The notes beneath the pieces are model-generated. The model was not told where the DNA came from. It worked only from the letters and a program-made list of their open reading frames with translations, and did not search any database. Source: Dictyostelium discoideum (taxonomy: Eukaryota). Taken from it: a stretch of 64,000 nucleotides of DNA. Positions 47,658 to 64,000 of the stretch are shown piece by piece. Location: NCBI GenBank assembly GCA_000004695.1, contig CM000155.2, positions 192,001 through 256,000 of the forward strand, given 5' to 3'. Position 1 is the first letter of the stretch. Each line of letters begins with the position of its first letter. The translations under genes and the position numbers were made by a program.

Positions 47658-50499
47658 ATGTTTGGTGGTCAATTTGGTTCATTCGGTGCAAAACCAGCTG
47701 CAACTGCATCACCATTCGGTGCTCCATCCGCTGCACCAACAACTTCATTGTTTGGTTCAACAGCTCCATCATCAGGTAAGTTTTTTTTTTTAAAATAAAA
47801 AATCATAAAACAAATATATAAATTAAATATTAATACAAAGTTTCAATTTCAAATAATATTATTTTAGGATTTGGAGGATTTGGATCAACAGCACAGACAA
47901 CACAACCAACAACAGGTGGATTTGGAGGATTTGGTGGATTTGGAGGAGCAACAACTACACAGCAACCAGCAGCAAGTCCATTTGGTGGTGGAGGAACAGG
48001 TGGTAGTGGATTATTTGGATCATCAGCACAAACAACAACACAGCAACCAGGTGCAAGTCCATTTGGTGGTGGATTTGGTACAACTACTACAACAACTACA
48101 CAGCAACCAGGCGCAAGTCCATTTGGCGGAACAGGTGGTGGATTATTTGGATCATCAGCACAAACAACAACACAACAACAAGGTGCAAGTCCATTTGGTG
48201 GATTTGGAGGAGCAACTACAACACAACCATCATTATTATCAGGTGCCACTGGTGGTTTTGGTGGTTTTGGTGGTTCTACAACTTCAGGTACTCAATTAGG
48301 TGGTGGTGGTGGTGCAACAAGTGGTGCATTTGGTGGTTCATCAAGTCCATTTGGTGGTAGTGGTGGTGCAACCACATCAAGTCCATTTGGTGGTGGTGGT
48401 GGTAGTTTCGGAGCAACCACTCAAAAACAATATGGAACACCAATTCCATATCAACAAACTACAATTGAAGGTAATACATTCGTTTCAATCTCTGCTATGC
48501 CACAATATAACGATAGATCATTTGAGGAATTAAGATTTGAAGATATCACTCATAGAAAGGATATAGTTTATAAGACAGGTGGTGGCAGTGGTGGTGGTAA
48601 CTCATTGTTTGGTTCAACTCCAACCACTCAACCTTCATCACCATTTGGTGCACAAACAACAACTCAAACCACTGGAGGTTTATTCGGTGGTCAAACTACT
48701 ACCTCACCATTTGGTGGTCAAACTTCAGCCACTCCAGGTTCATCATTATTTGGTTCAACACAACCAACTCAACAACAAACTAGTGGTGGTTTATTTGGTT
48801 CAGTACAACCAACCCAACAACAAGCTGGTGGTGGTTTATTCGGTTCAATGCCAAGCACAGGTGGTTCATCATTATTTGGTTCAACACAACCAACTCAACA
48901 ACAAACTGGTGGTGGTTTGTTTGGTGCAACCCAATCAAATCAACCAACCAATTCATTGTTTGGTGCATCAGCACGCATCAGCACAACCAACACAATCATT
49001 ATTTGGTGGACAAACTCAAACAACCACTTCACCATTTGGTAGTCAAACCTCCACACCATTTGGTCAACCTCAACAAACTAATACTGGAAGTGGATTATTC
49101 GGTGCTCAACAAACTCAACAAACTAATACTGGAGGTGGATTATTCGGTGCCCAACCAACTCAACAAACTAGTGGTGGTGGATTATTCGGTACTCAACCAA
49201 CCTCTGGAACTGGGTTGTTTGGTACGTCACCAACAGCAGGAGGTACAGGTTTATTTGGCACAACACAACCAACATCCCAAGGTACAGGTTTATTTGGTAC
49301 AACACAACCAACAACTCAAGGTACCGGTTTATTTGGTACATCACCAACCTCTGGTACAGGTTTATTTGGTTCAACACCAACCTCTGGTACAGGTTTATTT
49401 GGCTCAACCCCAACATCTGGTACAGGTTTATTTGGTTCAGCTCAACCACCACAAAATCAACAATCTCAAACTTCACTCTTTGGTAATACAGGTACAGGTG
49501 CAACCAACACTGGCACTGGTCTATTTGGTTCAGCTCAACCATCATCAAACCCAGGTGGTGGTTTATTTGGTTCAGCACAACCATCAACTACTACAGGTGG
49601 TCTTTTCGGATCAAACCAACCAACAGCACAACCAACAACTTCATTATTTGGAAATACCACTGGTTCAGTTGGTGGTTTGGGTGCAACACCAAACATAACC
49701 AGTGGATTATTTGGTTCAAACCCAGCACAAACTGGTGGATTATTTGGTTCAACACAACCAACCACCCAAACTTCACTCTTTGGAAATACAGGATCAACTG
49801 GTGGTTTAGGTGCACAAAATGGTGGTGGATTATTTGGTAATCTTTCACAACCAACCGCAACTGCTGGTCAAGGATTATCAGGTGGATTATTTGGTAATCT
49901 TTCACAACCTACTGCAACCGCTGGTCAAGGTTTATCAAGTGGTGGATTGTTTGGTAATACATTATTAGGTCAACCAAGTACACAGGGTTTATCAAGTGCC
50001 CTTCCAACATTGGGTTTAGGTTTAATGGGAGGTCAACCACAACAAACTCAACAACTTCCACAAGGCTCATTGATGTTACAACAAACTCAACAACCACTTC
50101 AACAACAACCACTCCAACAACAACAACAACCACTCCAACAATCAACCATCCAATTAAATAATCAAATCAATTCCGCTTCACCTTATTTCCCAATTTCATC
50201 ACCAGCACCATTTGCAACATTTGTTAAGGATTTAACATCAACTTCAAAAGTTGTTTCACCACCATCTTACACTCAAAGATCCTTATCACATCATGGTTAT
50301 ATTCCAAAATCAACCACTAAATTAGTACCAAGAAGAGGCCCAAACAATGTAGATCTAGGTTTTTCAGTTATACAAAATCAAAATGGTTTATTCCCAATTG
50401 ATAAATTTATTACTAAACATTCAAAATCTTTAAATATTAATACTACAAATGAAACTGAAGATACTTTAAGATCATTAAATACAAAGAGTTCTTCATTAT

Positions 50500-50536
<37 letters not shown>

Positions 50537-51667
50537 TAGAAATGTTAATACAAATGTTAACGATTATCAAAATAATGGATTACCATCTTCTTCACTTTAT
50601 AATAGTAATATTAATCAATTAAGTAACAACAACAATAATAATAATAATATTTATAATAATAACAATAATAATAATATTAACAACAATAATAACAATAATA
50701 ATATTTCAACTCAATTTAATTTAAGAAATAATCAATCATCATCTGATAATCTTAATAATGATAAATCTTTATCATCCTCTTCATCAAATAAATCACAACA
50801 ACAACAACAAAAAGAACAAAAAGAAGAACAACCACCAAAACCAATTAAAGAAAAAGAATTTATAAATCCAAATGCACCAAAATTAACAAGAGATGGTTAT
50901 CAATGTGTCCCATCAATTAAAGAATTATCAAAGAAAACTGATAAGGAATTATCATCAGTTCAAGGTTTTACAATTTCAAGAGATGGTTGTGGTTCAATTT
51001 ATTTCCCTGGTTCAACAAATTTGGTTGCATTAGATTTAGATGATATCGTTGATATTGAACCAAGAGAAGTATCAGTTTATAAGGATGAAGAAACTAAACC
51101 AGAGATTGGATATGGTTTGAATCGTGATGCCGTTGTTACATTGGAGAATTGTTGGCCAAAGAATAAAAATGGTGAAGTAGTTAAAGAGGATGGTACCATT
51201 TTAGATAAATATGAAAATGCCTTAAAGAAAGTTTCTGCTAAATCTGATTGTGGTTTCGTTTCTTATTCAAGATCAAATGGTACTTGGGTATTCACTGTTA
51301 AACATTTTAGTAAATATTCAGCACCAGATTTTGATGAAGATGATCAACAAATGCAACAACAAACTCAACAAAAACAACAACAAACTCAACCATCAAAAGT
51401 TACATTTCAACAACCATCAACCAAATTGACTAAACCAAAATTCACAGCAAATCTCGATAATTTTGACTCTGATTCTGAAACAAGTTCAGGTGTAAGTATT
51501 TTAGATTTTATTTAAAAAAAAAAAAATCATTATTTACATTCTTGTACTTTGTATTCTCGTTACTATAATAACAATAAAATCAACAATAGTAATAATAATA
51601 ATAATAATTTCCCCCCGCGCAGTAATATTTTCAATAAACCCCCAAAAAAAAAAAAAAAAAAAAAAAA

Positions 51668-51737
<70 letters not shown>

Positions 51738-51880
51738 TTTTATAATATAATAATTTTTAAAATTTATAAATAAACACTCTTTTTTTTTTTAAAAAAAAAA
51801 AAAAATAAACCCTTCTTTTATTTTATTTCATATTTTTTTAATTTTATTTTTTTTTAATTATTTCAAATATATTAACAAAT

Positions 51881-51922
<42 letters not shown>

Positions 51923-54409
51923 GATGAAAATCAAGATGAAATGGTTCCACAAAAGAAAACACCATTTATTAAAAGAGTATCAAATAGAGAGTCAGGATTA
52001 TTTGATACACCATCAGTTGTACCAATGTCTGAAAAAATTGAAACAACACCATCAAAGATTGCAAGAGTATCGGAACCAACATCTCAATCGAGTAGAATGA
52101 GTAACAACGCATTAAAGTTTTCAACATTTAATCCACAACAACAACAACTACAATCATCAAGATTTAAATCTACTGGTTTATCAATCCTTTCAAATCCAGT
52201 TAAAAATTTGATTCAATCAGATGTTAACAATGAACAATCAATGTTTTCCAATACCACCACTACCAGTACCACTAGAATTCAACCATTACCATCACAACAA
52301 CACTTAGTACAACCAATACCGACTACAATTTCATTAAATAAAAATTATTTTTCAAAGGTTAGAATTGATCCACAAGTTTATGATCGTATTGTACCAAAAG
52401 AAGAATCAATTACCAATCAATATAGAATGAAAAATGAACGTTTAAATCATAGTACTCAAGATGTATCATTATTTATGAGAAGATCATTTAGAGTTGGTTG
52501 GGCACCTGGTGGTAAATTAATTTCAATCACAAAGAGCTCCTTTAAGAATTTATTGATTAAAAAGTTACCAACCGATACAAAGGAGGATAAAAAAGAATCA
52601 ATCATCAAATTCTTAAAGAATCATCATTCACATAGCAGTTTAGTACCAGAGAATTTGAAATCAATTGGTTGGTTCTCAATTTCAAATGTTCAAGAACAAA
52701 TTGAATCACAATTAACCCTAAATGTTCCATCAAGTCAATCGGTTTACTATAATAGAATTTGGAGTTTAATTTCAAATCTTTGGGGTAACGTTTTAAAAGG
52801 CAATGGTAGTAAATATATAAACACCAACTACTCTGAAGATACCATTAGAAAGTTAAATCTCAATCAATGGTTAAAGGATGTCATTGCTCCATTGCTTAGA
52901 GATGAAATGGATTCTCTTAGAAAAAAGACAAATTCAAATTATCTCGAACAAATTTTCTCTTATTTATCTGCTAAACAAATTAAAGAAGCCTCTGATTTAG
53001 CAAATGAAAATAAAGATTTTAGATTGGCAACTATGATGTCTCAAATTTGGTCTTCAAGTGAATCTGGTAAAGAGTTGATTTTAAAGCAATTAACAACCTA
53101 TCATTCAAATGGTTCCGATGAATTTATAAATGAGAAAAGATTAGAAATTTTACATTTAATTGCTGGTAGTGTTAATAAGATTTATAAGAATCTAAATGAT
53201 TGGATTAGATGTTTTGCTGTTAGTTTTTGGTTTAAATATTCTTTGGAATATAGTATTGAAGATTCAGTTGAAAATTTTGAAAGATCTTTCAATGCTCATA
53301 GATCAGTTTATCCATTACCACCTTATTTAATTAAATCAACCTCCACCAATAGTAAACAAATTGAAGAACAACAACATTATTATGATATTTGTTTCTTATT
53401 ATTAAAGTTATTTGCTGTAAATCGTGGTTCATCACATTTTGATAAGTTTAAGAATATTTTTTATCCAGAGAATATTGGTCAAGATTTATTGGATTATCAT
53501 TTATCTTGGAATTTATATACCGTTTTAAAATCAATTCCATCATTAAACAAACAACCAGATCTTGTAAATGCAAGTAACCTTCATAGTTCTTTTGCTTTAC
53601 AACTTGAAAGATTAGGTCTATGGCAATGGTCAATCTATGTTTTACTTCATACTCCAGACCAATCCAATCATGTTAGAGAAGAAGCTGTCAAATCATTGAT
53701 CGCTAGAGCTGCACCAGTTATTACATCAGAAGATAGAGTGTTCCTAACTACAAAATTACATATTCCAGAGATTTGGATCGATGAAGCTAAAGCATGGTAC
53801 TCTGGTTACGATTGTAATAATGATATTTATGATCAAATCGATGCTCTCTTCAAGTCATACCAATACACAAAGATTCACGATATCATTTTCTCAAATATTG
53901 GTCCAAACTATATCATTCAAAAGAGATATCATTCACTCAAAGATTTACTCATTAGATTGGAGCCTCACTCTTCTTTTATCTCCACTTGGAGATATGGTGG
54001 TTCCATCTTTTTAGAATTTGCCGATATTTGTATTCAATACAAAGAGATACTTTCTCAACTCTCCAATACTGCAGAGGAAATTCAACGTACCAAATATTAT
54101 GTTAACCTTAAAGATATTACCACTAGAATCGTTAATATCTTATCTGATATTTCAAAAATCACTCAATCCTCTGAAATTAAAAATACTAGCGCCTCATACA
54201 AACAATCTCTTTCATTTATGTCTGAAGCTCTCATCACTAAAGCTTCTCTTTTAAGAGATCTACCTGAAAGTATTGTAAAATTGGTTTCAACAAATAATTT
54301 AGTTTCAACTTTAAATTCTTTGCCATTAACTCAAGATTATAGATCTAAAAATTTAGAATCTTTAACTGATCAAATTCAAGATACTTTATTAAATTCAATT
54401 TATCAATAA
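47658..54409 (+). CDS. Nucleoporin Nup98-Nup96 precursor (FG/GLFG repeats, GLEBS motif, autoproteolytic domain with HF|SKY site, then Nup96): join(47658..47775,47868..51491,51923..54409), with a +1 frameshift at 48965..48984
   Basis: Exon 1 reads MFGGQFGSFGAKPAATASPFGAPSAAPTTSLFGSTAPSS(G) and ends at a GTAAGT donor. Exon 2 holds FG/GLFG repeats, the GLEBS-like SISAMPQYNDRSFEELRFEDI (versus human CITAMKEYESKSLEELRLEDY), then the Nup98 autoproteolytic domain ...GFTISRDGCGSIYFPGSTNLVALDLDDIVDI...GTWVFTVKHFSKY with HF|SKY at 51303..51317. Donor GGT|GTAAGT at 51491/51492. After a t(n)ag acceptor, exon 3 reads DENQDEMVPQKK...SFRVGWAPGG...DLANENKDFRLATMMSQIWSS...DLLDYHLSWNLYTVLKS and aligns to human Nup96. 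The exon-2 frame is broken by a perfect tandem copy of gcatcagcac, which is why the track shows two overlapping ORFs (48497..49042 and 48579..51515). Confidence 0.85.
51662..51737. repeat. (ATA)n microsatellite in the Nup98-96 intron, flanked by a long poly-T
   Basis: The sequence reads ataataataata... directly. Confidence 0.85.
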
Positions 54410-54725: not shown

Positions 54726-56655
54726 CTAATGGAAGAAAGCTAAGATGAAGAGTGAAAGGATAGCAACTACCAATTTAGACATTTCAATACTTGAAGCACT
54801 ATTACCTGCAGCTGGAGTTTCAGTAACATTAACAACTGGGATAGCTGGGATACAACCTGGTGGACAAGTGGCTGGTGGAGCAGTTGGTTGTTCAGTTGGT
54901 GGTGAAGTTTCTGGGAGATCTATTTGAAAAAAAAAAAAAAAAAAAGGATTAGTATGAAAAAAAAAAAAAATTTAGTAATAAAGTATTTGATTATAACTCC
55001 ACCTTTCGATGAAGAGGATGAGAGTTTGTTATTTTGTGAAGAAGATGAGGGAGATGAAGAAGATGATGGAGATGAAGAAGATGAAGAAGATGATGGAGAT
55101 GAAGAAGATGATGAAGAGATAGAAGTAGAAGATAAAGAAGAAATATTATTTAAAATTGGTTGTGAAGATGATATTGGTTTTATAGAAGTAATATTTGATT
55201 GTTGAATATAGGTTAAAGTATAATTATTTGTTGTGAAATTTTGAGTTATATTTAAAGAAGAAAGTGTATTGATGATTGTTGTAAAATTTTTTGGTGAAGA
55301 AATTGTAAAATTTAAAGTAAACATACTTGTTGATGGATTAGTTTCACAGACAGTATCGACATTGATATCAAAGAATGGATTTGTAAGAGCAGCATCAACA
55401 TAATTTAACCAGACAGAGAGACCAAAGTTACCATTTTTACCATTAGCACCTTTACCCCATTGGAGATACATATTATCTTGATCACCTGTAATTGTAACGA
55501 CAGTACCATCATTTCTAGTACATGATGAACCTGAAACATTAACGGTATAGTAAGCCCAAGTATTTGGATCAATTGAACCACCACCAGAAACGTAAGCAGA
55601 GTTCATTAATTCTAATTTTGGTTGGTAATTAGCAGATGGAAGGGCTGGGCTAAATCTTAAGTCACAGTTTACAGTGATTGATGAATCTGAAATTGAAGTG
55701 AAACCAGCACCAAGACGAAGGTTACCATTGGTTTGATCAATTGAAATGGTGTTGACAGTTCCTGAGGAGGTATCAAATCTTTGTTGATTACCGAAAACTG
55801 TTGAAACTTGATCGACGTAAAGAGCTTGATCGTTTTGTTGATCGGTTAAAGATTTATCAATTGAAGCTTTGGAGATTGTGTAGGTATTGGATACACAATC
55901 GAATGTTGAACTACAACCAAGATTGATGTTAATATCAACGACTTCCATTTCACCATTACCAGATTGAATACTTACTGAACCATCGGTAGCTTTGAATTGG
56001 AACCAACCAGAAGCACCATTTTGAAGATTTTTACCATTGGCACCAACACCAACTTGGAGAGCAGTATTTGGATTTTCAGACATTGTAACAACGGTATTTG
56101 GATTTGTTAAACTAACCATTTTAGTATTATCTGGAAGAATTTGATAGAAAGACCATGTACTTGGGTCAACTGTACCACCATTGGATGTATATGCACCAGC
56201 TTGTAACTCTCTCTTGACATCACTTGGAGTAGTAGTTCTAACGAAAGCAGCACGTAAACTAAATTTATCAGTGAGTGATGAATTGGCTGGTGTCAATGTA
56301 CCAGTTAAAACTAAATTATCCCCACCATTGCTTTGAACAACACCATTTGAAACGAAATTATAATTGTTGGCAATTTGAATTTGATTACCTAAATTATTAT
56401 TAAAGGTTAATGCATCACCACCAGTGGTTGGACCAAAAGTTGAATCAAGTTGTGCTGAACTTGCATCTATTTAAAATAATAAATAAAAAAAAAAAATAAA
56501 AAATAAAAAAAATTTTAATATATTTATTTTTTTTTTTATTTATTTATTATTATTAATTTTATATTATATTTTTAAAACTTACCATTAACTGTACACTGTG
56601 AATATGCTGATCCTGCTACAGTAAGAGCAACTAATAATACGGAAAGAACTCTCAT
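54726..56655 (-). CDS. Secreted Ser-rich GPI-anchored surface protein with two tandem homologous beta-rich domains: complement(join(54726..54919,55003..56466,56583..56655))
   Basis: Exon 1 is a signal peptide, MRVLSVLLVALTVAGSAYSQCTVN(G), ending at a GTAAGT donor. Exon 2 follows a tttaaatag acceptor: DASSAQLDSTFGPTTGG... with duplicated blocks AYTSNGGTVDPSTWSFYQI...LQVGVGANGKNLQNGASGWFQF and AYVSGGGSIDPNTWAYYTV...LQWGKGANGKNGNFGLSVWLNY, then poly-Ser. The apparent tail ...[17 protein letters not shown] is poly-A/T read-through. A phase-1 donor AAAG|GTGGAG lies at 55003, and the caaatag acceptor gives exon 3 (D)LPETSPPTEQPTAPPATCPPGCIPAIPVVNVTETPAAGNSASSIEMSKLVVAILSLFILAFFH*, a Pro/Thr stalk plus GPI-type hydrophobic signal. 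Exon 3 is in frame only with that donor. Confidence 0.6.
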
Positions 56656-58452: not shown

Positions 58453-59072
58453 TATTAAAAATGAAATAAATTTTAGTTGTAATTTCATTTAGAGGAACAA
58501 ATATGGAATCATTAGAAAATTGGATTACAAATTTAAATTTTGCAAAAACCGAACCATATCCAGCATTTCCAGGTGCATTGGTACATGCAGGATTTAATAG
58601 AGCCTATCAATCAGTTAGACCAATTGTACATCAATTATTGAATTCAACTTTTGAAGCATGTCCAACTTGTAATAAATTAATTATGACAGGTCACTCGTTA
58701 GGTGGTGCCCTTAGTGTATTATCAGCATTGGATATTTATGAAAGTTCATTGACAACAATGCCATTGATTTTATATACTTATGGTTCACCAAGAATTGGTG
58801 ATGTTGCTTTCGTTGAATACTTTGAATCTACTATCATGCAAAATTACATTAGAATCGTGAATGACCATGATTTAGTACCACATTTACCTGCTATGGCTTG
58901 GAATTTTTATCATTTACCACAAGAGATTTGGTTCAATAATAAATCTGATGTCACTCAACATGTTGTTTGTAATGAATCTGGTGAAGATGAAAATTGTTCT
59001 GATTCAATTAAAATTGCATTAAATATTCCAGAACATCTTGAATATTTTGGTATAAACAAAAATCAATGTTAA
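57853..59072 (+). CDS. Secreted triacylglycerol lipase, class 3 (Rhizomucor/Thermomyces-type Lipase_3): join(57853..58014,58149..58311,58477..59072)
   Basis: Exon 1 is a signal peptide, MIKNRMWNKISIILIVLILCLIGVES..., ending at donor ATG|GTAATA. Exon 2 follows an attcag acceptor: YSYSTYCEPDQITNWNCPYCA...TFGYIGVTADKES, ending at donor A|GTATGT. Exon 3 follows a ttttag acceptor: (I)VISFRGTNMESLENW...VHAGFNRAY...IMTGHSLGGALSVLSALDIY...YGSPRIGDVAFVEY...NDHDLVPHLP. It aligns along its length to Rhizomucor miehei lipase (VFRGTNS...VTGHSLGGA...GGPRVGN...HKRDIVPHVP). The catalytic Ser is in GHSLGG (around 58691..58711). A (TTTA)n microsatellite lies in intron 2. Confidence 0.85.
58329..58455. repeat. 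(TTTA)n tetranucleotide microsatellite, about 30 units, in lipase intron 2
   Basis: The sequence reads tatttatttatttattta... directly. Confidence 0.9.
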
Positions 59073-60156: not shown

Positions 60157-60508
60157 ATGCCTTTAAAAATTTTTAATAAAAAAGGTGGTAATAATCAATA
60201 CACAGTTAAATTAAAAATTGATTTAATTTCAAATGTATCCTATGCATATCCAAAAGATACAGAATTTGAAATTGAATGGAAACGTGGTGTACATAGAGGT
60301 GTTTTACCAAATGTGTATATGCAGAGCGATGGCGATATTAAACCATCAACTCAGTTTTTAATACCATGTCAATTTTTAAAACAAAAATCAGATCAAGGTG
60401 GTGAAGAATTTGCTCCAAAAAGTTTAATTGTTAATTTAAGAAAAGTAAATATAAAAAAAAAAAAAAAATATCAACATTAATTAAAAAATAAAAAAATTAA
60501 ATGTATTA

Positions 60509-60547
<39 letters not shown>

Positions 60548-60702
60548 AGGTTGAATCAAAAAAGAAAACAACTAAAATTGCAACTCTTCAAATTGATTTA
60601 TCGCATATGGCAAATAAACTAGAATCAGATAAAGAAAAACAATATTCATCAACAATGAAAGGAATAATTGATCAAGAATTTAAACCATATGTAAGTATAC
60701 TA

Positions 60703-60740
<38 letters not shown>

Positions 60741-61891
60741 TTAAAAATTATTTTTTTTCTATATAAATTTAAAAACATATTAATTCCAGAATTTTTTTTT
60801 TTTTATATAAAATTAGATTGAATTTACTACTTCAGTTTATAAAGGATTATTAAGTCCAGAAGATTTCAATGACAAAAGTGTTTTTATTGCGCCAATTAAT
60901 GTTTCACCACCAATTGATGATACTTCAATTAGTCATTCATTATATTCTGATGGTAGAAGAAATTCTGTCTCAAGTGTTTCAAGTGAACTTTCAGAGTATT
61001 CAAATATTCAAGAAACGTCCTCGTCCATTGGTTTTGGTAATAATAATAATGGTAATAAAAAAGATCATAAAAGAAGTAATAGTAATGGTAGTAATAACAG
61101 TAGAGGAAGTAATAGTAGTAAAGGTAGTAATGGTAGTAATGGTATTAATGGTGGAAATCAAAAAAAGATATCACCCACTTCTCGTCACCAAAGGTCAACA
61201 AGTGATCCATTTGAATTTAATTTTGAATCAACTACACCAGTTACATTTTCAAGGAAAAGTTTAAGAAATTCTACGACACTAGACGACGATCCATTAAATA
61301 GCCCATCCGATCAACCAATCTTTTCATCAGATGAAGAAGTTAAAGAAAGTAATAATCTAAATAACAATAATATTTCACCAACAAATTATTCAAATCGCTC
61401 AATATCACCAACAAATTCAACTCAATCATTAGAAACATTTGATAAAGATATTGAAAATCAACCAACATTAGCAGAAACACCAACAAAGAGTAAAAAGAAA
61501 ATGTTTTCATTCTCTAGTAAAAAGAAATCAAAAGCTTCACCTGAAAGCAATCAAAGAAAAAATAGTAAACCTGAAAATTTAAATGTTTCAAAGATTAAAG
61601 GTGATGAAATTAGTACTGAAGAATTCTCATCTGGTAGCGAAAGTGGTGGTTCACCAAAACCTGGTAAATGGAAAAGAAGACATTCAACACCAAATGTTGG
61701 TTTCTTTTCAATTAAATCATTCAAAGATAAAGAAAAACAAAAAGAAAAAGAAAAGGAAAAAGAAAAAGAAAAAAAACTTCAATCAGATTTTTATAATACA
61801 AATCAAACACTTGATAATTTAACAATTAATGAAACTAATGAAAATGAATTTGAAGGTCACCATAATGGTCTTGATAATAATAATAATAGTA

Positions 61892-61927
<36 letters not shown>

Positions 61928-63413
61928 GTAGTATGAATAATGAAAATTCAAGTAAAAATAATAAAAAATCAAAGAATAAAAAGCAATCATTTGATTCAAA
62001 TTCATCAACATCACCAACAAATAAACAAGAAAAATCAAAAGATAGAAAGAATTCAAAAGAAAAGAATTTTATAAATAAATTAACGACTTCATTAAATCCA
62101 AATAGTAGTAATAATAATAATAATAATAACAATATTAATAATAGTAATGGTAGTGATTCTAAAGATACATTACAATCATCATTGGTTACAAGACATTTAG
62201 ATGAAAAATTAAAATTCTTAATAGATGATATGATTGTTTCCAAAAGACCAGAATATGTTGGCAACATTCCAATCTCTGCAATTGCAATTTATAAATGTAT
62301 TTTCGAATGGAAAGAATTATCACCAAATAATAATAAATGTTTAACAGAAATGATTGAAACATTTGATTTAATGATAAAGAAAAAGAATATTGGTAAAGAA
62401 AAGTCATTCTATTGGTTATCAAATTCATTTACATTAGGTTTCCTACTTGAGAAATCATATGAAAACCAAAAAATATCACGTTCAGAATTTAACACATCTC
62501 CAAGTATTAATTTCTCTCATAATACTGAAAGCCAAAATCTAAAACTATTGATCAATATAGTTCAAGGATATCAAAGATCATTTTGGTCATTATATTGGGA
62601 TAGTGTTAAATTGGAACTATCAAAGGTAATGGATAGATTAACTGAACAATTAAGAGTAAAGGAATTTGAAACCACACCAATCTTTTTAAATTTCCTTTTA
62701 TCAACTTTAGAATTTTTAGAGAAAAGGTTACCATTTCAATCAGTTTGGCCAAATATTTTTAAACAAATCTTTTTCTATGTCTCTGGTTATTTAGTTAATA
62801 AATTTTTAACTGATAATTCTTTAGCAACTACAAACAATGCTGTAAATACAAAATTATTCATTTCATCTTTATCTCAATGGTTTCAAGAGAATAAAGAATT
62901 AAATTATTTTTATTATTTTAAGTAATGTATTAAAAAAAAATAATAATAATTATAATAATAATAATAATTATAATAATAATAATAATTTACTAATTTATTA
63001 ATAATTTTTTTTTTTTAAAAAAAAAAAAAAATGGAAATAGAATGGAAATGAGCACACTTGTTCAAATATTAGATGTATTGGTAATTGATAAAGATTCATT
63101 AAAAGATGAATTAGTCAGAAAAGAGATTTGCCCATCATTAACAACTACACAATTAGCAATTGTTTTATGTAGATTTAATCCAGAAAATTCATCAGAAGAA
63201 GTTGATCCAGCAGTAATAAAATATTTACAAGACGAAGGAATCAGAAAACATGACATTCAAAATATTACAACCAATTTAGATAAAATCTATGAATTACCTG
63301 ATAAACCAGAACCTTCAAGAAGTATCATTGATACAAAGATACCATTAAATATATTCCCTCAATCAAATCAAAAACTCTTTAAATTTTTAACAAAACCAAC
63401 TACAATTTATTAA
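60157..63413 (+). CDS. NT-C2 (EEIG1/EHBP1-type N-terminal C2) domain protein with C-terminal DIL (dilute/myosin-V cargo-binding-like) domain, about 970 aa: join(60157..60444,60551..60691,60817..62921,63041..63413)
   Basis: Exon 1 reads MPLKIFNKKGGNNQYTVKLKIDLISNVSYAYPKDTEFEIEWKRGVHRGVL...LIVNLRK and ends at a GTAAAT donor. Exon 2 follows an aattag acceptor: VESKKKTTKIATLQIDLSHMANKLESDKEKQY...EFKPY, ending at GTAAGT. Exon 3 follows an aattag acceptor: IEFTTSVYKGLLSPEDF..., a Ser/Asn-rich linker, then FYWLSNSFTLGFLLEKSY and ...FKQIFFYVSGYLVNKFLTDNSL...SQWFQENKE. These match the myosin-V DIL motifs FLWLSNTCRLLHCLKQYS and [21 protein letters not shown]...SQLEEWLRDKNL. Donor AA|GTAATG at 62921. 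Exon 4 follows an aaatag acceptor: (K)MEMSTLVQILDVLVIDKDSLKDELVRKEICPSLTTTQLAIVLCRFNPENSSEEVDPAVIKYLQ. Confidence 0.7.
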
Positions 63414-63521
63414 AAATAAATAAATAAATAAAATACCAGGGATTTTTGGTTATTATTGAAAAAATAAAAAGTTAAAATAAATAAAATTTTATTTATCTTT
63501 ATCTGATTGTTCTAATGTTGC

Positions 63522-64000
<479 letters not shown>

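Follow-up and report, generated by a model that had tools for sequence, protein, structure and literature searches.

The locus at positions 60157-63413 on the forward strand of the 64,000-nucleotide stretch of Dictyostelium discoideum DNA analysed here (the window) is a gene already present in the public D. discoideum annotation, not a new one. Its predicted product couples an N-terminal NT-C2 domain, by way of a long linker, to a C-terminal globular tail of the myosin V/XI type. We regard the identity of the gene and this domain architecture (NT-C2, linker and tail), taken together, as practically certain. The features, in window coordinates, are as follows.

60157..60444, + strand: exon 1, aa 1-96, with the ATG and the N-terminal two thirds of the NT-C2 domain
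60196..60648, + strand: NT-C2 domain (Pfam), aa 14-129, interrupted by intron 1 and crossing the exon 1/2 junction
60445..60549, + strand: intron 1, 105 nt, GTAAAT..TTAG, GC 4.8%, phase 0
60550..60690, + strand: exon 2, aa 97-143, the remainder of the NT-C2 domain
60691..60816, + strand: intron 2, 126 nt, GTAAGT..TTAG, GC 7.9%, phase 0
60817..62921, + strand: exon 3, aa 144-845 (first two bases of codon 845), with the last C2 strand, the linker and most of the tail
60850..62172, + strand: linker, about aa 155-595, about 440 aa, rich in Ser, Asn and Lys and poorly conserved
61204..61218, + strand: DPFEF motif, aa 273-277; P274, F275 and F277 invariant in nine orthologs
61672..61692, + strand: KRRHSTP basophilic site, aa 429-435; R430 and S433 invariant
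62173..63410, + strand: globular tail of the myosin V/XI type, about aa 596-968, interrupted by intron 3; from a profile search against the PDB
62755..63188, + strand: DIL core (Pfam), aa 790-894, spanning intron 3
62922..63040, + strand: intron 3, 119 nt, GTAATG..ATAG, GC 5%, phase 2
63041..63413, + strand: exon 4, the last base of codon 845, aa 846-968 and the TAA; C-terminal third of the tail domain

The reading frame opens with the ATG at 60157 and closes with the TAA stop codon at 63411-63413, and the spliced coding sequence of 2907 nt is in frame and encodes 968 amino acids. This protein shows no sequence difference from D. discoideum AX4 XP_001733044.1 (UniProt B0G181; 100% identity over 100% of the length), and the same four-exon model is needed to yield B0G181. 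The four exons proposed in the initial annotation, which was made from the DNA alone, are confirmed. The splice coordinates that it gave as 60444 and 62921/63041 were exact, while 60551 and 60691 each lay one base off the true 60550 and 60690. The public name of B0G181, "dilute domain-containing protein", cites the dilute domain alone; in D. purpureum the ortholog is called "C2 NT-type domain-containing protein". All three introns are of the GT..AG type, with a GC content of 5-8% as compared to 25-27% in the exons. An in-frame TAA at 62923-62925 overlaps the donor of intron 3, so that retention of this intron would cut the tail domain short. Neither a tRNA nor an Rfam family was found in the window, implying that no RNA gene is hidden in the introns or elsewhere. 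The minus-strand open reading frames within the gene (for example 61857-62267) have low-complexity translations rich in Leu and Phe, which we take to mirror the coding repeats rich in Asn and Lys.

Comparison with orthologs backs all three predicted junctions. In D. firmibasis, GT and AG are kept at all six splice sites. The exons are 84-92% identical to it at the DNA level, with indels only in multiples of three: exon 1 is 92% identical with zero indels, and all nine indels of exon 3 are multiples of three. The introns, including intron 1, are 60-80% identical and carry indels that are not multiples of three. Tieghemostelium lacteum has introns 1 and 2 at identical codon boundaries (SINLKK|IEGKKK and DDFKPY|IEFKAS, respectively), and both are missing from an intron-less Logan contig (L005) whose open reading frame corresponds exactly to the ortholog. 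The site of intron 3 falls within a continuous exon in T. lacteum. Two JGI contigs (L001 and L002) carry an uninterrupted orthologous open reading frame of 869 aa, and the intron 3 site lies within that of L001. These ortholog contigs support the reading of the predicted product as one polypeptide. Public gene models are faulty for three of the orthologs.

The same data bear on whether exon 4 (63042-63413) could instead be a separate gene of 123 aa, the upstream reading frame then ending at the TAA at 62923-62925. One automated annotation, that of "Dictyostelium cf. discoideum", calls exactly such a 123-aa protein (KAM9994569.1), and the ATG of this reading frame sits one base past the intron 3 acceptor. 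However, the exon 3/4 junction is crossed both by the match to the DIL HMM (aa 790-894) and by the alignment to myosin Vb, which extends to profile position 353. The sequence at this junction is uninterrupted in the genome of T. lacteum, in its intron-less contig and in contigs L001 and L002. Moreover, the gene models of D. citrinum, D. firmibasis and AX4 all join exon 4 to the upstream exons, and intron 3 has a conserved GT..AG, 5% GC and indels that are not multiples of three. Domain continuity, the ortholog contigs, the joined models and the intron features effectively refute the two-gene reading. The segment 63041..63413 belongs to the same gene, as the initial annotation had assumed.

At the N-terminus, Pfam NT-C2 (PF10358) matches aa 14-129 at 40.5 bits, above the gathering cut-off of 25.2 (E 2.6e-10). 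This match appeared only in a scan restricted to the N-terminal 175 aa and is absent from the full-length scan output. The domain begins at residue 14 of 968, and the orthologs and 37 further representatives of the family also carry it at the N-terminus. AlphaFold2 models the N-terminus (pLDDT 85.7) as all-beta, with ten strands and one short helix, and the modelled sandwich reaches about aa 152 (window position 60843). A Foldseek search of the PDB with this model returned C2 domains as all of the top 50 hits, with E values down to 5e-6 and target-normalised TM scores mostly of 0.5-0.76 for single-domain C2 entries. A search of the PDB sequences with an NT-C2 profile yielded no relative. On the strength of the model, the N-terminus can confidently be predicted to fold as a C2 sandwich of the EHBP1/EEIG1 type, the type named in the initial annotation.

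Ahead of strand 1 the domain carries a basic segment, and it also has an invariant W-(K/R)-R-G; the two are located where EHBP-1 has RRLRR and HRRRK. In EHBP-1, the NT-C2 domain binds PI(4,5)P2 membranes via an N-terminal basic patch and a basic patch in strand 2 (PMC4894640). On the other hand, targeting does not always require an NT-C2 domain, nor is the domain by itself always enough: RPG works without its NT-C2 domain, and that of Hoi1 remains cytosolic when on its own.

At the C-terminus, Pfam DIL (PF01843) scores 62.4 bits against a gathering cut-off of 24 (E 5e-17) and covers HMM positions 2-105 of 105. The DIL domain proposed initially is therefore present, but the module is larger, extending beyond the 105-aa core to what appears to be a complete myosin V/XI globular tail. 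The tail profile, searched against the PDB, matched myosin XI-K (7kfl, E 7e-17) and myosin Vb (4lnz, 6e-14), and 13 of the 13 matches were myosin XI or V, with no afadin structure among them. The homology runs over about 355 aa and reaches the full tails of myosins XI-K, Va, Vb and Vc. In myosin Va, residues 1459-1818 are the counterpart of profile positions 17-354, covering both subdomains, and two stretches match myosin XI-K and MyoVb. Both motifs quoted in the initial annotation have counterparts there: FYWLSNSF aligns with FWLSNTC or YWLSNSA in subdomain 1, and FKQIFFY...SQW with FKQLFYM...EEW in subdomain 2. For the tail, AlphaFold2 gave a helical but poor model (pLDDT 53.5) from a 6-sequence alignment. 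With this low-confidence model, the top 16 Foldseek hits were all myosin V tails, at a TM score of only about 0.37. Pfam gave no Myosin_head or IQ match in the 968-aa protein. Judged from its sequence, the protein has neither motor, IQ motif nor coiled coil and is not a myosin.

Several residues on which known tail interactions depend are not conserved. Y1714 and Q1748 of MyoVb (Q1753 in MyoVa) are needed for Rab11 binding, and the two MyoVb mutations abolish it (PMC5021521). Here they are replaced by L823 and V859, so Rab binding would not be simply transferable from myosin V. Likewise, K1706, K1779, E1789 and E1791, which are essential to head binding and inhibition in Myo5a (PMC4454200), correspond to N810, I885, N894 and S896. 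Because these key residues differ, we rejected the idea that either function, binding of Rab11 or of the head, carries over from vertebrate myosin V.

These replacements also weigh on the idea that the protein regulates or competes with class V-like myosins, its tail competing for cargo receptors or inhibiting heads in trans and its NT-C2 domain limiting this action to one membrane. Tail-only myosin XI constructs are reported to be dominant negatives for organelle movement (PMC2423659), an isolated GST-GTD inhibits Myo5a-HMM in trans (PMC4454200), and the tail domain studied here is of full length. Yet the four head-binding positions of Myo5a are all altered. In addition, in a crude neighbour-joining tree of the tails, which is star-like and has no support values, the tails linked to NT-C2 all branch outside the main myosin clade, so that shared receptors are not implied. 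We consider a regulator or competitor of this kind unlikely; competition for cargo by the tail is conceivable and overlaps with the adaptor model set out below.

The segment joining the two domains shows low conservation and many indels across nine dictyostelid orthologs, short islands excepted. From its composition and poor conservation, we read it as disordered. One island is DPF(E/D)F, conserved within the otherwise unconserved linker and present as NPFEF in T. lacteum. Another contains KRRHSTP, which by its motif pattern is a candidate phosphorylation or 14-3-3-type site. The DPFEF and RRHS motifs are confined to the dictyostelid ortholog group. When 18 non-orthologous family members were scanned for DPFEF, a similar acidic DPF occurred only in Acrasis kona (NDPFED); two others of the 18 have D/NPF tripeptides, which are unrelated.

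DPF and NPF motifs are ligands of appendage and EH domains. The protein might accordingly be pictured as an endocytic accessory factor, in which DPFEF recruits the AP-2 appendage or EH-domain proteins to a PI(4,5)P2 membrane held by the NT-C2 domain, in parallel to the NPF motifs of EHBP1. The invariance of P274, F275 and F277 in nine dictyostelid orthologs, amid an unconserved linker, speaks for this picture. However, DPFEF is present in a single copy and, the acidic DPF of Acrasis excepted, nothing comparable turned up outside Dictyostelia among the 18 non-orthologous members scanned. The endocytic reading also leaves the conserved tail domain unexplained, and we judge it quite improbable.

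The predicted pairing of NT-C2 and DIL, singled out in the initial annotation, is not peculiar to this locus. At least 37 further clusters at 50% identity share the architecture, in Amoebozoa, Heterolobosea, euglenids and a glaucophyte. This distribution is based on an exhaustive representative search, Pfam and a local iterated HMM. Pfam detected NT-C2 in 23 of the 66 best tail-domain relatives, and the local iterated HMM in 22 + 15 representatives. A word-indexed protein search with the tail profile added only one new protein, and the same kind of search with a diverse NT-C2 profile gave zero matches. Named members come from Acrasis, Percolomonas, Heterolobosea sp. BB2, Euglena, Entosiphon, Gloeochaete, Soliformovum and Cavostelium, together with a second dictyostelid paralog group that is only about 20% identical to the D. 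discoideum protein in the tail. None of the 11 members with organism names is from an animal, fungus or land plant. The layout is one polypeptide with NT-C2 at the N-terminus, the tail at the C-terminus and a variable linker between, and the D. discoideum protein fits it. Examples such as A. kona KAL0488697.1, T. lacteum KYR01299.1 and Euglena gracilis EG_transcript_2686 have the same domain order and comparable lengths of 650-1150 aa, and Soliformovum P0025 aligns to both domains (tail, 25% identity, E 6e-20; NT-C2, 28%, E 1e-6). By these predicted architectures, the protein is a member of an old, uncharacterised protist family. The NT-C2 domain was reportedly defined by Zhang and Aravind in 2010, in work said to have already listed the NT-C2 + DIL combination. 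Our literature search found nothing on B0G181, including experiments or expression data, on a "dilute domain" in Dictyostelium, or on NT-C2 together with a dilute or globular tail.

The description of the product as membrane-targeted and Rab/myosin-adaptor-like, offered in the initial annotation, is a reasonable inference from its domains. We tentatively propose a motor-less adaptor or tether between membrane and cargo, a mechanism that we think possible but would not rate as the probable one. The NT-C2 domain would attach to a membrane that is acidic and rich in phosphoinositides, a behaviour demonstrated for EHBP-1 and EEIG1. The flexible linker would supply reach and probably bears regulatory phosphorylation, and the tail domain would capture a vesicle- or organelle-bound protein as its ligand. 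Candidates for this ligand are a Rab or an adaptor peptide; myosin V tails bind partners of these kinds. Taken as a whole, the account of a known gene with this architecture and a putative adaptor or tether role is probably the best explanation of the data. More speculatively, and with considerable doubt on our part, the NT-C2 + tail proteins might form an ancient, hitherto unstudied class of motor-less tethers in Amoebozoa, Discoba and glaucophytes. Such tethers would statically hold cargo of the myosin V/XI type at phosphoinositide-marked membranes, as a "parking brake" to the motor, and the dictyostelid branch would have gained DPFEF as an endocytic motif and RRxS sites as phospho-switches.

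RefSeq and UniProt both contain this exact protein, and standard Pfam models detect both of its domains; the locus is thus a correctly read and already catalogued gene. Its interest is that, in a widespread protist family, a C2 module of the lipid-binding type and a cargo-binding tail of the myosin type are joined with no motor. The ligands can be sought in Dictyostelium, a tractable organism, and knowing them would reveal what use is made of cargo-binding tails in proteins other than myosins.

Among known systems, the layout of an NT-C2 domain, a disordered linker and a C-terminal module is shared with the BLTP2 adaptors Hoi1, EEIG1 (FAM102) and Drosophila Bbo. In the "hook" model for these proteins, the NT-C2 domain lies at the plasma membrane and the disordered linker leads to a C-terminal partner-binding element. 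A functional equivalent of Hoi1/EEIG1/Bbo, serving a lipid-transfer protein of the BLTP2/Hobbit type, would match both this layout and the family of the N-terminal domain. However, at the C-terminus they have a short helix/strand motif for binding the BLTP2 "handle", as compared to a globular tail of about 370 aa here, and no sequence relationship to them was seen other than in NT-C2. Such an equivalence seems very unlikely. EHBP1 and EHBP-1 are similar in having an N-terminal NT-C2 domain, a long linker and a C-terminal module, which in EHBP1 binds trafficking machinery. EHBP1 consists of NT-C2, NPF motifs, a CH domain and a bMERB domain that binds Rab8/10, whereas the D. discoideum protein has a myosin-type tail at its C-terminus. 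CH and bMERB domains were not detected in it, and Pfam gives NT-C2 and DIL only.

The tails of myosins V and XI (Arabidopsis XI-K 7kfl; human Va/Vb 4lnz, 4lx0 and 7yv9) are homologous to it in both subdomains, with E values of 7e-17 to 3e-8 and the common motifs YWLSN and FKQ.F.....N..L......W. The identity in the tail is only about 16-19%, and the motor, IQ motifs and coiled coil of these myosins have no counterpart. Finally, afadin/Canoe and the fungal motor-less dilute-domain proteins, of which yeast YPR089W is an example, resemble the D. discoideum protein in carrying a DIL domain outside a myosin. The partner domains are RA, FHA and PDZ in afadin and ankyrin repeats in the fungal proteins, and the NT-C2 domain sets the D. 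discoideum protein apart from both.

The gene lies on the forward strand at 60157-63413 and is composed of four open segments:

60157-60444, + strand, exon 1
60550-60690, + strand, exon 2
60817-62921, + strand, exon 3
63041-63413, + strand, exon 4
introns 1, 2 and 3, + strand, 105, 126 and 119 nt, all GT..AG

The window has a GC content of 23.8%, with homopolymer-rich spacers and short, AT-rich introns; those of this gene have 5-8% GC, as compared to 25-27% in its exons. The spliced coding sequence (2907 nt) is in frame and encodes a 968-aa protein, which shows 100% identity across 100% of its length to XP_001733044.1 / EDR41025.1 / UniProt B0G181, the 'dilute domain-containing protein' of Dictyostelium discoideum AX4. 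This identity establishes D. discoideum as the source of the window, and means that the four-exon structure is the one given in the existing annotation of the locus. The initial annotation had placed the start, the stop, 60444 and 62921/63041 exactly, while its 60551 and 60691 were each one base beyond the true positions, 60550 and 60690. Orthologs with 86-45% identity are present in D. dimigraforme, D. firmibasis, D. citrinum, D. purpureum, Tieghemostelium lacteum and Heterostelium album.

Three independent lines of sequence comparison support the splice junctions. The D. firmibasis locus (L003) is syntenic, with a Lipase_3 neighbour upstream in both species. Its exons are 84-92% identical to those of D. 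discoideum, and all nine indels are multiples of three, whereas the three introns are 60-80% identical with non-3n indels; GT and AG are kept at all six splice sites. The T. lacteum genomic locus (L004) contains two GT..AG introns of 59 and 62 nt, and their positions (SINLKK|IEGKKK and DDFKPY|IEFKAS) correspond to the codon boundaries and phase of D. discoideum introns 1 and 2, while the site of intron 3 falls within a continuous exon. Both T. lacteum introns are absent from L005, a 2714-nt contig assembled from sequencing run ERR3252989, whose unbroken ORF is identical to the 855-aa T. lacteum ortholog; the contig behaves like a transcript assembly. Finally, an unbroken 869-aa orthologous ORF, gapless through all three junction sites, is present on two contigs from JGI (L001 and L002). 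With two coordinates mended by one base, all three proposed junctions are thus supported by the orthologs.

The sole evidence for exon 4 as a gene of its own is an automated call of a 123-aa gene in 'D. cf. discoideum', which is contradicted by the D. firmibasis, T. lacteum and L001/L002 comparisons as well as by domain continuity, as the DIL match crosses the exon 3/4 junction at aa 845. The assignment of 63041-63413 to the same gene consequently stands. Three public ortholog models look faulty: the D. purpureum model (P0004) breaks off partway through the tail domain, that of H. album (P0007) lacks about 110 aa of the tail, and in D. cf. discoideum (P0008, KAM9994569.1) the exon 4 equivalent alone was called as a 123-aa protein.

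Further features of the window are as follows:

48579-54409, + strand, evidently a Nup98-Nup96 precursor gene of two ORFs, the first with GLFG repeats and, at its end, the Nup98-96 autopeptidase S59 domain (PF04096, E 4e-45)
about 425 nt downstream of the first ORF, the second ORF of this gene, which contains the Nup96 domain (PF12110, E 7e-81) and is probably joined to the first by an intron
54920-56296, - strand, ORF of 458 aa without a Pfam match, Ser-rich over a long stretch close to the C-terminus, which may encode a secreted or cell-surface protein
58503-59072, + strand, class-3 lipase exon (PF01764, E 2e-30) directly upstream of the NT-C2 + DIL gene
63500-64000, - strand, gene exceeding the window end, in which an extended + strand (TTG)n / (TTC,TTG) run reads as minus-strand poly-Gln/Glu

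A Lipase_3 gene also adjoins the ortholog in D. firmibasis (L003 1-576) and in T. lacteum (L004 3136-3974; on the other side of the ortholog and on the other strand), and the linkage is therefore conserved. The gene at 63500-64000 aligns at 78% with L003 4767-5062, within a 518-aa minus-strand D. firmibasis gene with a weak mitochondrial-carrier match. No tRNA genes or Rfam families at the gathering threshold were found in the whole window (1-64000).

The N-terminal C2-type domain proposed initially is borne out. Pfam NT-C2 (PF10358) matches aa 14-129 across the exon 1/2 junction, with 40.5 bits against a gathering score of 25.2 (E 2.6e-10), when the N-terminal fragment is scanned by itself and only then. 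AlphaFold2 models aa 1-158 with confidence (pLDDT 85.7) as an all-beta fold that contains a single short helix, and the model's best 50 PDB matches are all C2 domains, including those of dysferlin, myoferlin, CEP120, Itch and E-Syt.

The C-terminal DIL domain (PF01843) was likewise detected at aa 790-894, scoring 62.4 bits (gathering score 24; E 5e-17) and covering HMM positions 2-105 of 105. The homology extends beyond this Pfam core: when a profile built from six dictyostelid C-termini was compared with the PDB, all matches were to globular tail domains of myosins XI and V (among them myosin XI-K 7kfl, 7e-17; MyoVb 4lnz, 6e-14), and profile positions 17-354 correspond to MyoVa 1459-1818. The FYWLSNSF motif, initially read as part of DIL, does align with myosin FWLSNTC / YWLSNSA, but lies in subdomain 1, outside the Pfam DIL. 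The AlphaFold2 model of the tail is poor (pLDDT 53.5); myosin V tails nevertheless account for all of its top 16 Foldseek matches, a weak indication of the fold at a low TM of ~0.37. On these profile matches, the protein is a member of both the NT-C2 and the DIL/globular-tail families. Pfam found no motor, IQ, CH or bMERB domain in the 968-aa protein.

The linker (about aa 155-595) is rich in Ser, Asn and Lys and weakly conserved, with small conserved islands common to nine dictyostelid orthologs:

DPF(E/D)F, in which P274, F275 and F277 do not vary
RRxS, with R430 and S433 invariant (KRRHSTP in D. discoideum)
an RRNSVSSVSS-like stretch

Among 18 scanned non-orthologous family members, a comparable acidic DPF occurs in one, from Acrasis kona (NDPFED), and unrelated D/NPF tripeptides in two.

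When the tail profile was run exhaustively with HMMER against 1.84 billion representatives, 370 matches reached E <= 1e-3. Eight had E < 1e-30, namely seven dictyostelid orthologs (E <= 6e-100) and P0014, a 500-aa fragment (7e-34); the weaker matches include many non-myosin proteins of 500-1150 aa. All of the best 66 new matches contain DIL and 23 contain NT-C2 by Pfam, whereas only seven have a myosin head. With a locally iterated NT-C2 HMM, 22 of the 66 proteins, and 15 of the 81 ranked after them, show the domain at the N-terminus. Of the members with both NT-C2 and the tail, those with a source name belong to the following groups:

Heterolobosea: Acrasis kona, Percolomonas, Heterolobosea sp. 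BB2
Euglenozoa: Euglena gracilis, Entosiphon sulcatum
glaucophytes: Gloeochaete wittrockiana
other Amoebozoa: Soliformovum irregulare (P0025, aligning with the query over both domains), Cavostelium apophysatum
second, distant dictyostelid paralog group (~20% identity to the query in the tail): D. firmibasis RB653_002501 (P0069, 1129 aa), T. lacteum DLAC_02020 (P0075, 1148 aa)

D. discoideum probably carries a copy of the second paralog elsewhere in its genome. A crude NJ tree built from 101 tails, calculated without support values, places none of the NT-C2-linked tails within the main myosin clade. The pairing is thus old and widespread in protists, and no peculiarity of the D. discoideum locus; none of the 11 members with a source name, out of 37 family members, comes from an animal, fungus or land plant, which suggests its absence from these groups.

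The protein thus unites, in one polypeptide without a motor, an N-terminal domain of the C2 type with a cargo-binding tail of the myosin type. The NT-C2 of EHBP-1 binds PI(4,5)P2-rich endosomal membranes through basic patches at the extreme N-terminus and strand 2 (PMC4894640). In the query and its orthologs, a Lys/Arg-rich segment lies ahead of strand 1, and W-(K/R)-R-G is invariant in the region matching EHBP-1 strand 2. In the Hoi1/EEIG1/Bbo 'hook' for BLTP2, a disordered linker connects NT-C2 at the plasma membrane to a binding element at the C-terminus. By analogy with these precedents, the protein would most likely act as a motor-less membrane-to-cargo adaptor or tether, with its tail binding a ligand on a vesicle or organelle.

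As for that ligand, the tail might be read as a simple Rab11 effector, like that of MyoVb, in which Y1714 and Q1748 (MyoVa Q1753) are Rab11 determinants (PMC5021521). According to hmmalign, these residues are replaced by L823 and V859, which weakens this reading. The protein as a trans-inhibitor of myosin heads is similarly weakened, since the head-binding and autoinhibition residues of MyoVa, K1706, K1779, E1789 and E1791 (PMC4454200), are replaced by N810, I885, N894 and S896. Myosin V does not reveal the ligand of the putative adaptor, for which other Rabs, or adaptor peptides, are conceivable.

Neither the protein nor the NT-C2 + DIL pair was mentioned in the literature searched. Public databases already contain the exact protein as well as both of its domains, and the finding is therefore already known; the family is uncharacterised, and its function could be studied in Dictyostelium. 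The query was rejected as a myosin (no motor or IQ), as an EHBP1 family member (no CH or bMERB) and as an EEIG1/Hoi1 ortholog, since defining features of each of these were looked for and are absent. Its layout is nevertheless most like that of the EHBP1 and EEIG1/Hoi1 NT-C2 adaptors.
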